NCBI GenBank assembly: GCA_964648855.1
Contig: CAZYLT010000037.1
Location: 1-10,877, forward strand
Reading direction: 5' to 3'
Length of the DNA: 10,877 bases
Origin: an uncultured archaeon
GTDB taxonomy: Archaea; Asgardarchaeota; Thorarchaeia; Thorarchaeales; Thorarchaeaceae
In this document: positions 1-10,877 of the stretch, in pieces
Numbering within the stretch: the first letter of the stretch is position 1
Layout: every line of letters begins with the position of its first letter
Notes under the pieces: model-generated
What the model saw: only the letters and a program-made list of their open reading frames with translations
What the model was told of the DNA's origin: nothing
Database searches by the model: none
Position numbers and translations under genes: made by a program

Positions 1-57
1 AAAAAACCATACTAGTGAAAAAGAGATTCGGAGGTGAAAAGAATTAGCAAAGACCGG

Positions 58-180
58 ATGAGGGCCATTTATGAGCGCATGACAAAGGATCGTGCAGCCC
101 TTGAATTACTGTCAATTGGCATAGTTAGTGGCATTGCCACAGTAGTGCAGCCGCCTTGTGAGGATCCTAGCCCGTTCTAG
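58..180 (+). CDS. Putative 40-aa small protein MRAIYERMTKDRAALELLSIGIVSGIATVVQPPCEDPSPF (alternative in-frame starts: ATT at 43, GTG at 34)
   Basis: Translated by hand, ATG 58-60 to TAG 178-180. Strong SD GGAGGTGA at 30-37. Charged N-terminus, hydrophobic middle, and a C-terminal P-S-P-F-stop matching the P-E-P-F-stop of the two downstream micro-ORFs. Start codon uncertain. Confidence 0.6.
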   Translation: MRAIYERMTKDRAALELLSIGIVSGIATVVQPPCEDPSPF

Positions 181-182
181 CG

Positions 183-276
183 TAGCCTAGACGTGTGTGG
201 GTTCTCAAGTAAAGCTAGCCCTATTGCTATGTGATTCATGTCCGAATCATTGCAGCTAGTATGGGAGCCTAGGTTA
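183..276 (+). other. Predicted long imperfect RNA stem-loop between micro-ORFs
   Basis: Nested pairings read by eye: 183-188/271-276, 199-207/262-270 (9 bp, 3 G-U), 214-219/255-260, 225-227/252-254 and 231-237/244-250, closing loop ATGTCC (238-243). Confidence 0.45.
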
Positions 277-304
277 TCACAATCACGGAAGGAGGAGAAG
301 AACC

Positions 305-346
305 TTGGAGCCCGACCTTGGAGCACCATCACCTGAACCATTCTAA
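305..346 (+). CDS. 13-aa micropeptide MEPDLGAPSPEPF, copy 1 (TTG start)
   Basis: Codons ttg gag ccc gac ctt gga gca cca tca cct gaa cca ttc taa. SD GGAGGAG at 291-297, 7 nt before TTG. Same peptide as copy 2 with synonymous-only divergence. Confidence 0.8.
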   Translation: MEPDLGAPSPEPF

Positions 347-400
347 AAAAACGGAAGGAAACCGAAAAAAAACGAGAGTGACACCCGAATGAAAAAAACG
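345..400 (+). repeat. Three A7-8-CG tracts in the spacer between the two peptide genes
   Basis: AAAAAAACG at 345-353, AAAAAAAACG at 365-374 and AAAAAAACG at 392-400. Confidence 0.55.
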
Positions 401-425
401 AACAACAAGGAGGATGAAAGAAAAT

Positions 426-467
426 ATGGAACCTGATTTAGGAGCCCCGAGCCCCGAGCCATTCTAA
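426..467 (+). CDS. 13-aa micropeptide MEPDLGAPSPEPF, copy 2 (ATG start; in-frame ATG at 414 would add MKEN)
   Basis: Codons atg gaa cct gat tta gga gcc ccg agc ccc gag cca ttc taa. SD GGAGGA at 409-414. Same peptide as copy 1. Confidence 0.8.
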   Translation: MEPDLGAPSPEPF

Positions 468-514
468 AAAATACCTAAGAAATACTTGAACAAAGAGAAA
501 AAGGAGAAAACAAA

Positions 515-766
515 ATGATAGGAAATGCAACAGAAACAGCATTCGCAAATTTGATAGCACCTGAAAGCGGAAGAGCAGTTGACCCCTTTGCTGACCCAGA
601 GGTTGTACGCCTAACGGCAGTCAATCTAGAATTGGCAGTGAAGAATTTGATGACTGCTTCAACTCCACCTGAATGCATAGTCCTCACTGCAGATATCTGC
701 TCACATAGGCTGATTGCGAGACCTACTGCAGATGGCGACGTGAGTGTACTAGTGTTCGACGAATAG
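515..766 (+). CDS. 83-aa hypothetical protein, possibly a minimal Roadblock/LC7 (MglB/profilin-like) fold
   Basis: SD GGAG at 503-506 in an A-rich leader, ATG start and protein-like composition. Apparent order beta(ANLIA)-turn(PESG)-beta(RAV)-helix(PEVVRLTAVNLELAVKNLM)-beta(ECIVLT)-beta(RLIARP)-beta(VSVLVF). The coding call is fairly firm; the fold is inference. Confidence 0.75.
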   Translation: MIGNATETAFANLIAPESGRAVDPFADPEVVRLTAVNLELAVKNLMTASTPPECIVLTADICSHRLIARPTADGDVSVLVFDE

Positions 767-815
767 CCAGTGTAACGACACTGGAAGAGTCTGTATCCGG
801 GGATCTGTCCCCGGA
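767..815 (+). other. Two perfect hairpins directly after the 83-aa gene (possible transcript 3' end or stability element)
   Basis: CCAGTGT-aacg-ACACTGG (767-784) and TCCGGGGA-tctg-TCCCCGGA (796-815). No U-tract follows, so this is not a classic intrinsic terminator. Confidence 0.6.
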
Positions 816-949
816 AACCGGGCTTGAAGGAGGCTATATAGTGAATGCAGAACATATGAATACCAAGCAGATGCTTCAGAGGCATAGGCCATATACACAA
901 TGCCGTAAGCCGAGCATGTCGCTTGATGTAAACATATGGAGAAACCAAA

Positions 950-2392
950 ATGACGGATATATCCTCAGAAGTCAGTATTCAAAAGGAGGAAAATTTGACT
1001 GATTTTGAAGACGATGTGTCAGTAGATGGATATGGTCAAGACGAAAAGGATGAGCTAGATTCGCAGCAATCGGACGGCGGTCTGCTCCATTCATTGAAAC
1101 TTATTTTATCAGCAAAAAACTATGGCGTGTATTTGATTACCGCATGGATTTTTGGATCTATTGTGTATCTTCAGGCATATCTTAATTTGTATCTGCGTGC
1201 TCTAGGATGGGATTTTGTAGTCATGGGAGTAATGATGTCAATACTAGCAGTATTTGCATCGGTAATGAAATTACTCGGAGGATATGTAGGAGATGTCACG
1301 AACAGAAAGAATCTCTCGGTTGTCGCGATGTTACCGATATCAGTTTTCTATTTCATCATTGGTGTCTTTGTTGACCCATTAATGATTGTTATCGCATTGA
1401 TAGTGTATCAGTCTCACGAAATTGCTAGGAGCGGCTCATCAGCATATATTCTGGAGAACACCCCCAAGAAAGACAGTGGTCTGGCAATGTCGTTATTCAA
1501 TGTGGGGAAGGTCTTTGGCATTGTGACATTGATAATTTTCGGGGCCTCGGTCACTATCTTAGGCTTTACTGAGGCATTCAGATCCATCTTCTTGGTCGCC
1601 AGTCTTATGATATTCTCATGTTCGATTGCTAGAGCAAAGTATCTTGAGTATGATGAGCAAGCTTGTAATGATTTACAAGATAAGTGGTCACTGAAACGGT
1701 TCTTACTGGAGAATAGGAGGGCAGCAAAACTGCTTGTGGCTTCGGTCCCAGGCCTTCTTACAATCGTGATTATGGATGGCATTAGTGATTCGTTTTTCAG
1801 ATTTGGTGCTTTGATATATGCCAATGAAGTATTAGCTATTGATATTTCCGGGATTAATATGATACTCCTTGTATACTCCATGCTTTCCGTCCCTCTTCTT
1901 CTTAAGATTGGGCGTGTATCAGACAAGAGTGGCACAAGAAGAGCGGCATTGATTGTATATTTGCTAATGCCAGTAAGTGCTGCACTATTGATACTTGCTC
2001 CAGTTATTGCATTCTGGGGACCCCAGACGTGGGTACTGACTGCAAACAGCATATATCCGGGACTGGGTGTTATTTTCTCTACTGCATTCATAGCTATAGT
2101 AATGAAATACCTTAACGATGCGTTATGGTATATGGTCCTGCTTACACTTATCCAGAAGAGTCTTCCAGAAAAGGATACTGCAAAAATACTGTCGATTTTT
2201 TGGTTCACAGTGTATGTCTGTTCCTCCATTGGCCCATTAATTGCAGGAGCCATATTCGAATATCTGAGTCCTGCTTTTCTGTTTGGGATTATGCTTATTC
2301 TAAATGTCATAATCTTGGTATCAATAAAGACGGGTCCTTTTGCAAAGAATGACTCACCAGCTGATGGAAATCAAAAACATGTTGTTGAGTAG
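950..2392 (+). CDS. Major facilitator superfamily (MFS) transporter
   Basis: About 12 hydrophobic segments in two halves. Motif-A-like GGYVGDVTNRK and its repeat GRVSDKSGTRR. Acidic N-terminal tail. Alternative in-frame start TTG at 995 with SD GGAGG at 985-989. Confidence 0.9.
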   Translation: MTDISSEVSIQKEENLTDFEDDVSVDGYGQDEKDELDSQQSDGGLLHSLKLILSAKNYGVYLITAWIFGSIVYLQAYLNLYLRALGWDFVVMGVMMSILAVFASVMKLLGGYVGDVTNRKNLSVVAMLPISVFYFIIGVFVDPLMIVIALIVYQSHEIARSGSSAYILENTPKKDSGLAMSLFNVGKVFGIVTLIIFGASVTILGFTEAFRSIFLVASLMIFSCSIARAKYLEYDEQACNDLQDKWSLKRFLLENRRAAKLLVASVPGLLTIVIMDGISDSFFRFGALIYANEVLAIDISGINMILLVYSMLSVPLLLKIGRVSDKSGTRRAALIVYLLMPVSAALLILAPVIAFWGPQTWVLTANSIYPGLGVIFSTAFIAIVMKYLNDALWYMVLLTLIQKSLPEKDTAKILSIFWFTVYVCSSIGPLIAGAIFEYLSPAFLFGIMLILNVIILVSIKTGPFAKNDSPADGNQKHVVE

Positions 2393-2435
2393 AATTCAAA
2401 AAGCCTACTGATTAGGACAACACGGACGTGATTTG

Positions 2436-3092
2436 ATGGCAGATAGCGAGAAGGCAATGAAGATCCTGGAGATTCTACAGGAAAGACATGAAGATGCCCC
2501 ACAGACGTATCTCAATTGGGAAAACCCGTATCAACTGCTTATCGTAACAATCCTCTCTGCACATACAACTGATGCAGCGGTCAATTCTGTTTCTGAAGAC
2601 CTATTCAAAGAATATCCTACTCCAAAAGACTTGGCAAATGCCGATGATGAAAATGTGATTGACATAATAACCAAGGTGGGAACCTATAACAGAAAAACGC
2701 GTTATATCAAGGAAACGGCAGAAATGATGGTGGAGGAGTTTGGCGGAGAAGTCCCAAAGAATATGAAAGATCTCGTAGAGTTCACAGGAGTAAGTCGCAA
2801 GACCGCTAACGTAGTGCTTCAGACTGCGTTCGATATTAACGAAGGAGTTGTAGTTGACACTCATGTTGGTCGAGTCACTAAGCGGTTGGGCCTAACTAAA
2901 GAGAAATCTGCCAAGAAAATTGAACAGGACCTAATGGACTTGCTACCTACGGATGAATGGGATGAGTGGGCACGAATCATGGGAGCTCATGGAAGAGATT
3001 TGTGTAGTGCAAGAAATCCTGATTGCCCGAATTGCCCCGTCAATCACTTATGTCCCTCTGCAGAATTAGAGGAGGCAAACGAAAGAACCTAA
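2436..3092 (+). CDS. nth: Endonuclease III (HhH-GPD DNA glycosylase/AP lyase with 4Fe-4S cluster)
   Basis: NPYQLLIVTILSA, HhH GVSRKTANVVL with the catalytic Lys, VVDTHV with the catalytic Asp, and C-X6-C-X2-C-X5-C (CSARNPDCPNCPVNHLC). ATG at 2436 preferred over TTG at 2433. Confidence 0.95.
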   Translation: MADSEKAMKILEILQERHEDAPQTYLNWENPYQLLIVTILSAHTTDAAVNSVSEDLFKEYPTPKDLANADDENVIDIITKVGTYNRKTRYIKETAEMMVEEFGGEVPKNMKDLVEFTGVSRKTANVVLQTAFDINEGVVVDTHVGRVTKRLGLTKEKSAKKIEQDLMDLLPTDEWDEWARIMGAHGRDLCSARNPDCPNCPVNHLCPSAELEEANERT

Positions 3093-9365: not shown

Positions 9366-10646
9366 CTATTTCTGATGCAACTTTGGAGCAGCTACGAAGG
9401 ACAGTTCATTCTTCGTCAATTCGGAAGCGGTTCGATTCAGTGACTCGTGTTTGTCGAGATAGTTTCTCAACATCTTTGGCATATCACCGGCACCCAGTAT
9501 TTCGGACTTGCTCCTGAAATAGTCAAGAATGTCACTGGGATACTCACGTTTCTCTTCGATTTCGGGGTTGCCACCCTCATGTTTTGCACTAACATTCTTC
9601 ACATGATCCGCAAGCTCAACGAGTTCATCCGTTCGATCATATGGTTGTCTGACAATGTGTTTGTAGGTCTCAGTGATGTGATGTTCTATTCTAACAACGT
9701 CCGTAAACTCGAAAGCCTCACGGACATATGCTGCCAATTCAATGGTTTCGTTGTTTACGCTATTGGATAGGTTGAAGCCGATTAGTGGAGATGTTCCATC
9801 ATCCCTACTGAATAGATTGGCGGTCAATAATGTCCATAGACATGCATATGGATTGTCATTGCCCATAAAGACGGATATCTTGAATTCCATATCAATCCCC
9901 AGCTTATGCATCATATAACCCACTAGCACACTTCCCGGATTGATGTTCAAAACCTGCTTTACCCCATAGGTTGTGTAGTAATGCAAATATTCGTCAGCCC
10001 ATTTCAAGGGGAAATCATTCGGCATTCCAACTCCACCAAAATAGCCTGTGATTGTTTCGGGCCCGCCAAGGTGTACATTTGTAGGGGCCCCATCAAGACC
10101 TGGTAGAGTTCCTTTGGTGTCGAGTGTTTCAACATATGATGCTCCAACAATCTGCATCCCTGCTGCAAAGGCAATAACTTGATTGTCCTCCACCTGTTCT
10201 TTCATATTTCTCACACGGATGAATCGCCCAGGCATCAGGTCTTCGCGTTCGATTGCATATTTTGCCTCTTCTATTAGCCAAGGGAAGTATTGGCAGGCAC
10301 TGATTTCCAGAGTTACAGCATGTTCTTCATCGAAATCAATCGAGTCGGCTTTCTCCCCCATAATCTTCCTTCTATATTCAGGTATGGCGATGAATGCCTC
10401 ATCATCACGCTTCTCTTGAAGCCAGAGTAAATCTTCAACGTATGGTGAATTCTTCGATTCCAGTTTTTCCATCAGGTTACCAAGCTCACGAGCCTTGCTC
10501 GCCCTTCTGTTGATTTCTTTGACGCCTCCATACTTCTCTATGACTTGTATTAGTCTATTCACTAATGGATTATCATTATCCAAGAAGAAATAGTTAATTT
10601 CCTCTAAACGCTTCGGGTCTATCTTGAGCCTGTCTTGTTTCACCAT
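9366..10646 (-). CDS. Conserved hypothetical soluble protein (~426-431 aa), enzyme-like
   Basis: Long ORF with motif-like blocks QYFPWL, PGRFIRVR, ETLDTKGT, HLGGPETITGYFGGVG, FKISVFMGNDN, RIEHH and AKHEGG. No function recognised. ATG at 10646, TTG at 10661. Confidence 0.85.
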   Translation of the reverse strand: MVKQDRLKIDPKRLEEINYFFLDNDNPLVNRLIQVIEKYGGVKEINRRASKARELGNLMEKLESKNSPYVEDLLWLQEKRDDEAFIAIPEYRRKIMGEKADSIDFDEEHAVTLEISACQYFPWLIEEAKYAIEREDLMPGRFIRVRNMKEQVEDNQVIAFAAGMQIVGASYVETLDTKGTLPGLDGAPTNVHLGGPETITGYFGGVGMPNDFPLKWADEYLHYYTTYGVKQVLNINPGSVLVGYMMHKLGIDMEFKISVFMGNDNPYACLWTLLTANLFSRDDGTSPLIGFNLSNSVNNETIELAAYVREAFEFTDVVRIEHHITETYKHIVRQPYDRTDELVELADHVKNVSAKHEGGNPEIEEKREYPSDILDYFRSKSEILGAGDMPKMLRNYLDKHESLNRTASELTKNELSFVAAPKLHQK

Positions 10647-10877
10647 GTCGTGCCCATCCAATCCAGCTAATCGTAGGCTTTCTGTTTGTTGTTAAGATTG
10701 CATAGCCATTAAAAGTGCTTCCTGATAGTTCATTTCAATTTCAGACCCGGATCGTTCCATGACGCCATTGGATGGGAGGCTCGTCTTCAGAATAGCAAAC
10801 ATCTATCTAATGAGTGGTCAGAACCGTTGTCCGAAACTTACCCATCTAAGACACTTCCTTGATGGTGTTTGGTTCCT

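Follow-up and report, generated by a model that had tools for sequence, protein, structure and literature searches.

Several described systems place a short peptide-encoding open reading frame (ORF) upstream of the gene that it controls. MgtL, mgtA's leader peptide in E. coli and Salmonella, starts with the Asp/Glu- and Pro-rich sequence MEPDPT and acts by intrinsic ribosome destabilisation, for which at least four Asp, Glu or Pro residues in six, near the N-terminus of a short nascent chain, has been used as the criterion (10.1101/2021.02.02.429294). In eukaryotes, the AZIN1 uCC starts at AUU and ends in PPWxxPS-stop, and the yeast HOL1 upstream ORF (uORF), MLLLPS-stop, controls a polyamine transporter via its penultimate Pro (PMC9082881, PMC10855120). 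In the termination-arrest peptides TnaC, SpeFL and PepNL the C-terminal residues are decisive, the penultimate one above all (PMC11890864). Here we analyse an entire 10,877-bp contig (C37; henceforth 'the window') of the 3.1-Mb, 62-contig genome of an uncultured Asgard archaeon, which carries, in one orientation, a 45-codon ORF (p45), two copies of a 13-residue micropeptide gene, a gene for an orphan protein of 83 amino acids (p83) and a gene for a major facilitator (MFS) transporter. As judged from its sequence and its conservation, a role as translational sensor or as tail-motif peptide is more likely for the Pro- and acid-rich micropeptide than one as the output of an antibiotic-type peptide factory. 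We tentatively favour, at somewhat short of even chances, a reading in which the small ORFs are cis-acting, hard-to-translate leader frames that control p83 and possibly the MFS transporter.

The locus was compared with 24 genomes of the same family (16 genera) and with 16 genomes outside it, and also with 65 loci fetched from GenBank Thorarchaeota entries, 62 of which include upstream DNA and form the base of the counts out of 62 given below; three of the most divergent p83 relatives were examined in addition. All related loci come from metagenome-assembled genomes of Candidatus Thorarchaeota. The arrangement of small ORF, p83 and MFS gene was present in all 24 searched family genomes and in 62/62 GenBank loci, a recurrence far above chance. 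A reading made earlier from the letters of the window only (henceforth 'the sequence-only reading') had proposed that these parts form one small-peptide system and would occur together in other genomes, and the peptides, p83 and the MFS gene indeed co-occur in every related genome. The parts that it had listed, namely an ORF ending in CEDPSPF-stop at 180, the 13-mers, p83, hairpins and the MFS gene, each ORF with its own Shine-Dalgarno (SD) sequence, are all found where it had placed them.

Micropeptide gene 1 (291..346, plus strand) consists of a GGAGG SD at 291-295 and a TTG-to-TAA ORF at 305-346, and gene 2 (409..467, plus strand) of a GGAGG SD at 409-413 and an ATG-to-TAA ORF at 426-467. 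Both encode the identical peptide MEPDLGAPSPEPF, and the two copies differ at 12 nucleotides in nine codons, with nine synonymous and no non-synonymous changes; their flanks are unrelated to each other. A co-oriented, SD-led ORF of 11-15 codons was found upstream of p83 in every family-genome locus with upstream DNA, in 62/62 loci and in the three divergent ones, with 31-61 nt between its stop and the p83 start. On this evidence, the small ORFs are genuine coding genes under selection. Their expression signals (GGAGG SD, ATG start, CCA codons, TAA stop) read as those of a heavily translated ORF, and the stop context is TAA in 74% with a purine at +4 in 81%. Several lineages, namely this genus, genus g10 and those of loci L093 and L102, have separate duplications in which the ORFs are intact. 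At L102 (~1090-1250) the duplication is an exact tandem one of ~116 nt that includes the SD and the micropeptide MDVPFDPPEEPW; the start called for the p83 homologue there overlaps with the stop codon of the second copy (ATGGTGA). The searchable literature yielded no earlier description of this micropeptide cassette.

The micropeptides are conserved in composition and at their C-terminus rather than in sequence. Asp, Glu and Pro make up half of all residues, versus 18% in the proteome, and at least four of these in six residues are found in 56/66 distinct peptides (85%), versus 5.5% of proteome windows. In each of the 66 distinct peptides (63 from the main set and three divergent), position -2 is Pro and the terminal position (-1) is one of Trp, Phe and Tyr. 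Of the 63, 43 end in Trp, 18 in Phe and two in Tyr; the prevailing residue is Glu at -3 and Pro at both -4 and -6. In phylogenetically independent close pairs, the ratio of non-synonymous to synonymous differences per site (pN/pS) was 0.19 for the last three codons and 0.69 for the remainder; only the last two to six residues are conserved, and the rest keeps its composition under nearly free sequence change. A pattern of this kind, strict for the final two residues and fading upstream of them, is what C-terminal recognition motifs typically show, and it is the starting point of a close rival of the cis-acting leader reading. Here, the micropeptides and p45 would act in trans by docking on a common receptor via [D/E]-P-x-P-aromatic-COOH, the receptor could be p83 (which has an internal DPF-x-DPE motif), the neighbouring regulators or the MFS transporter, and the abundant micropeptide would be either a competitor of the weakly translated p45 or a signal, be it intracellular or exported. 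That the conserved 45-residue p45 has the same tail fits this idea, to which we give about a third of the weight overall. However, measured against p83, the variable part of the peptide evolves ~10-fold faster than the core and 4-fold faster than the N-terminus, and it differs at 59% of positions between genomes whose p83 cores differ by 6%, whereas the neighbouring regulator and the MFS transporter have ordinary pN/pS values (0.24 and 0.22, respectively); therefore, no co-diversifying receptor was found. Also against a trans-acting peptide, Trp and Phe are exchanged at the peptide end between near-identical sister genomes, the micropeptide has no signal sequence, and fold searches gave no recognisable peptide-binding domain in p83. 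Co-variation of the peptide with p83 amounted to phylogenetic correlation only.

The first ORF, p45 (43..180, plus strand), is preceded by the SD GGAGGTGA (31..38, plus strand), whose nucleotides are conserved in all relatives examined (52/52), where ATT, ATC or ATA always follows 8-10 nt after GGAGG. The start codon was ATT in 30, ATC in 15 and ATA in seven of the 52 loci, and ATG, GTG and TTG were not used. This nucleotide conservation extends to loci in which SD and ORF are in different frames, of which there are at least five with an in-frame TGA or TAA that separates the SD from the Ile codon. Given these in-frame stops, predicted initiation of p45 must be at the ATT, ATC or ATA codon, which yields a 45-residue product in the window. 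The sequence-only reading had started this ORF at the ATG at 58 (40 amino acids), which is not the conserved start. Alignment of 40 p45 sequences (A2) gave a mean column identity of 78%, pN/pS is 0.13, and the C-terminus is always C-E-D-P-x-P-F/Y (QPPCEDPSPF-stop in the window) with an invariant Cys, the tail being the one shared with the micropeptides. AlphaFold2 (AF2) modelled p45 as a low-confidence helix in the N-terminal part and a disordered tail (predicted local distance difference test, pLDDT, 63). In most lineages p45 stands ahead of the micropeptide gene. In about eight lineages that retain the micropeptide and p83, p45 was not detected; therefore, the micropeptide and p83 make up the core pair. 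The p45 stop is TAG in 46/57 loci versus 40% genome-wide. Read-through of this stop was considered and rejected, as no conserved frame lies beyond it.

We next consider the RNA around these ORFs. The sequence-only reading had proposed a stem-loop in the spacer between p45 and the first 13-mer (181..290, plus strand) and two hairpins after p83, and only the latter held up. The spacer stem-loop is no better than shuffled sequences in the window (z -0.26; z +1.0), and its counterpart in relatives is a short, weakly supported hairpin that often takes in the p45 TAG stop (mean z -0.67). In contrast, the region directly 3' of the p83 stop (767..825, plus strand), with its two GC-rich hairpins, has z = -3.43 in the window, and relatives keep a strong GC-rich hairpin there (mean z -3.07, with 20/25 below -1.5) whose sequence differs between genera while the strong fold is retained. 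The A-rich spacer between the micropeptide and p83 (468..514, plus strand), which contains the p83 SD (GGAG, 503-506), is unstructured in the window (z +1.25), and so is the corresponding leader in the 62 relatives (mean z +0.21, 50% A). An attenuator between micropeptide and p83 was therefore rejected, since the leader is no more structured than shuffles. A search of window positions 1-3000 against Rfam (E <= 1) gave zero matches.

If the small ORFs are cis-acting leaders, ribosomes on the micropeptide and p45 frames would pause, abort or terminate slowly, to an extent set by aIF5A activity, by polyamines or Mg2+, or by prolyl-tRNA, and ribosome occupancy of, or uncoupling on, the unstructured A-rich leader would then set p83 output. 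Candidate routes are re-initiation, steric block of initiation, mRNA stability and polarity-type transcription termination, and the hairpin after p83 could be the end of the unit or an attenuator ahead of the MFS gene. We lean towards this reading because the position and orientation of the micropeptide ORF upstream of p83 are invariant; because composition and C-terminus are conserved rather than sequence; because 85% of the peptides fit the published criterion for Asp/Glu/Pro-dependent destabilisation; because the weak non-AUG start and Pro-rich end of p45 parallel the AZIN1 uCC, with a further parallel in the penultimate Pro of the HOL1 uORF; and because no comparable SD-led Pro-aromatic ORF was found elsewhere in the intergenic DNA of this genome (two Pro-aromatic leader candidates, at C1:153013 and C46:4625, were dismissed as antisense to long ORFs).

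A number of observations weigh against the cis-acting leader reading, and several of these speak for peptides that act in trans. No RNA switch or coupling element was found, the leader between micropeptide and p83 behaving like shuffles, and since the p83 SD usually lies >15 nt past the micropeptide stop, and so mostly past the footprint of a ribosome at that stop, the link from pausing to p83 output is undefined. The strong stop context described above is not the weak one expected for termination arrest. Duplicates are retained with intact and often identical peptides, and the product itself may therefore matter; the absence of any amino-acid change across 12 nucleotide differences likewise suggests that it does. 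For a trans-acting peptide, the repeated duplications, identical peptides and optimised signals (GGAGG, ATG, CCA, TAA) would reflect selection for dosage. In addition, a related gene in this genome stands alone: contig C4 carries at 205205-205333 (minus strand; locus L098) a 42-codon gene for two identical 15-residue units ending in EQEPW, Pro- and acid-rich and with a Pro-Trp tail in the style of the micropeptides; a GC-rich hairpin and a T-run lie downstream of the gene. The neighbours of this C4 gene and the regulators upstream of the p83 locus showed no similarity by blastp.

The p83 gene (515..766, plus strand; GGAG SD) was found once per genome in 24/24 family genomes and in 0/16 genomes outside the family. 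A profile built from 25 p83 sequences recovered only eight representative clusters among 1.84 billion proteins, all of them strong matches, and p83 had no match in Pfam, NCBIfam, PADLOC or PDB sequences; p83 is thus a family-restricted orphan. In its AF2 model (pLDDT 83), residues 1-12 are disordered, and the conserved segment GREVDPFxDPE, a helix and a sheet of three strands come after them. All fold matches were sub-threshold: Foldseek against PDB returned Ragulator, MglB and Roadblock at E ~0.1 (TM 0.45 for the best match), a wide fold search (VIA) returned PAS, MON1-CCZ1 and MbnC at Z <= 6.1 and Asgard Roadblock at Z ~4, and longin-type folds matched at TM 0.4-0.5 (Atlas). These weak likenesses, together with the helix and three strands of p83, could be taken to mean that p45 and p83 are the halves of one split Roadblock-, longin- or PAS-like alpha-beta domain, with the micropeptide as a mimic of the p45 tail. 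We regard this as very improbable: p45 is modelled as a low-confidence helix and not as helix-strand-strand, it went undetected in several lineages in which p83 and micropeptide are both present, and every fold score is below significance. Set beside the alpha-beta-beta-alpha-beta-beta-beta fold of Roadblock/LC7, p83 has just one helix and three strands, and it has no Pfam match. A complex prediction of p83 (A1) with p45 (A2) gave a score of 0.01, which, as obtained without controls, speaks neither for nor against binding. Three p83 residues, Cys55, Cys63 and His65 (alignment A1; window ~677-709), are conserved in most genera and are jointly replaced by Ser, Gly and Gln in one genus. Synonymous divergence (pS) across the same pairs of genomes was 0.14 for p45 and 0.22 for p83, versus 0.47-0.52 for the flanking regulator and MFS genes, which hints at an extra constraint on p45 and p83 at the RNA or codon level.

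The MFS gene (950..2392, plus strand; Pfam MFS_1, E 7e-26) is followed in the window by nth, a GT4 glycosyltransferase gene, serS and sufBD/sufC, and its membership of the module is uncertain. The order p83-MFS-nth-(GT4)-serS is kept in all genomes, as is the order of the upstream genes; the whole 15-kb region is syntenic family-wide, which makes adjacency of the MFS gene uninformative as to whether it belongs with the small ORFs. The conserved strong hairpin lies between p83 and the MFS gene, within a variable gap of 117-745 nt that is without conserved sequence. Orthologues of the MFS protein, at 40-50% identity, turned up within the family only; in the single sister-family genome searched, the matches have just 31% identity. 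Beyond Pfam MFS_1, neither an NCBIfam nor a PDB sequence match nor a subfamily assignment was obtained for this protein. Its N-terminal extension (window 950-1090, ~45 residues) is acidic and poorly conserved, and a paralogue of 34% identity is encoded at C2:235931-237199.

Upstream of the small ORFs, relatives carry two divergently oriented paralogues of 350-490 residues with weak matches to MarR, HTH_24 and AsnC-type families; on the strength of these matches the two are probably transcription regulators. That two divergent regulators of helix-turn-helix (HTH) type neighbour the locus in every relative, an arrangement like that of Rgg-SHP or PlcR-PapR cassettes, is a further point in favour of a trans-acting peptide, although no repeat-type peptide-binding domain was identified in these proteins. 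Further upstream lie two Mer-like F420-type LLM oxidoreductases, the archaeoflavoprotein AfpA and an nth paralogue. It was here that the sequence-only reading had suggested looking for a radical SAM, YcaO, ATP-grasp, peptidase or small GTPase gene, and Pfam and NCBIfam scans of the conserved neighbours in relatives found none of these, and no LanB/M, within ~8 kb upstream. Its proposal of a production module, in which the short ORFs would be precursors of a ribosomally synthesised and post-translationally modified peptide (RiPP) that is modified and then exported by the MFS transporter, finds little room in such a neighbourhood and is the least probable of the readings weighed here. Multi-copy short genes beside a transporter do fit a RiPP locus, and p83 has a weak fold likeness to MbnC, a peptide-binding partner (Z 4.9), but this Z score is inside the noise range given by the fold-search tool, and no modifying enzyme, protease or RiPP recognition element (RRE) family was found in the conserved neighbourhood across the 24 genomes. 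Moreover, 11-15 residues cannot accommodate both a leader and a core, the variable part evolves nearly neutrally, and the locus is single-copy and syntenic in every searched family genome, unlike patchy biosynthetic clusters.

In each of the two assemblies of this genus, the contig breaks off at the same position, ~30-40 nt ahead of p45 (base 1 of the window and base 1 of G001:C53). The upstream genes expected at the locus are, in this genome, on two small contigs (C62 and C58); a tblastn search (E <= 1e-10) did not detect the proximal regulator paralogue. Tandem paralogues are probably the cause of the break, and further array copies, sought in this genome as an explanation of it, were not found. 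An ORF of 431 residues at 9366-10661 (minus strand) of the window had no Pfam match.

Gene callers miss the micropeptide genes, which nonetheless count among the most constant features that this whole Asgard family has. If they are translational sensors, they would represent early documented nascent-peptide control in archaea, with formal parallels to the polyamine and eIF5A circuits of eukaryotes; if they are ligands, they would represent a new C-terminal Pro-aromatic recognition code. Either reading provides a testable handle on the orphan p83 family.

Compared with described systems, the locus shares some features with each of four groups and differs from each in others. As in Rgg-SHP, PlcR-PapR and ComR-ComS of Firmicutes, an unannotated short peptide gene stands beside divergent HTH regulators with a transporter nearby, and aromatic residues are conserved in the C-terminal part of the peptide; unlike in those systems, no TPR receptor domain was identified, the peptide is rich in acidic residues and Pro rather than hydrophobic and lacks a secretion signal, an Opp-type importer was not seen in the vicinity, and regulator and peptide give no indication of having co-diversified. 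With TnaC, SpeFL and PepNL the locus has in common short upstream ORFs whose C-terminal residues are under constraint, but those peptides use weak or specific stop contexts together with RNA or Rho coupling, whereas here TAA plus purine prevails and no coupling element was found. MgtL is likewise a tiny SD-led ORF upstream of a controlled gene, and MEPDLGAPSPEPF begins with MEPD as does the MEPDPT of MgtL. However, MgtL works with alternative stem-loops and Rho, whereas the leader here is unstructured; the Pro-aromatic end is absent from MgtL, and the downstream gene here encodes an orphan 83-residue protein. To our knowledge, archaea have no Rho.

The eukaryotic uORFs offer the remaining parallel. 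Like the AZIN1 uCC, p45 combines a weak AUU, AUC or AUA start with a conserved peptide and a Pro-rich C-terminal motif, and the micropeptide resembles the HOL1 uORF in that its second-last residue is Pro (66/66) and a major facilitator transporter lies downstream. In contrast to AZIN1 and HOL1, the motif is P-x-P-aromatic-stop and not PPW..PS-stop, and a hairpin splits the MFS gene from p83; and whereas the eukaryotic uORFs need queuing scanning ribosomes, each ORF here has its own SD. By analogy, the locus might be an archaeal forerunner of eukaryotic nascent-peptide control, in which a non-AUG ORF for a conserved peptide and a Pro- and acid-rich micro-ORF, both ending in Pro-aromatic-stop, would read aIF5A, polyamine or Mg2+ status and set the level of a lineage-specific protein and perhaps of a transporter, although we consider this unlikely. 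Such a forerunner, to which we assign the same low probability, would resemble the AZIN1 uCC and the HOL1 uORF but would be Shine-Dalgarno-based.

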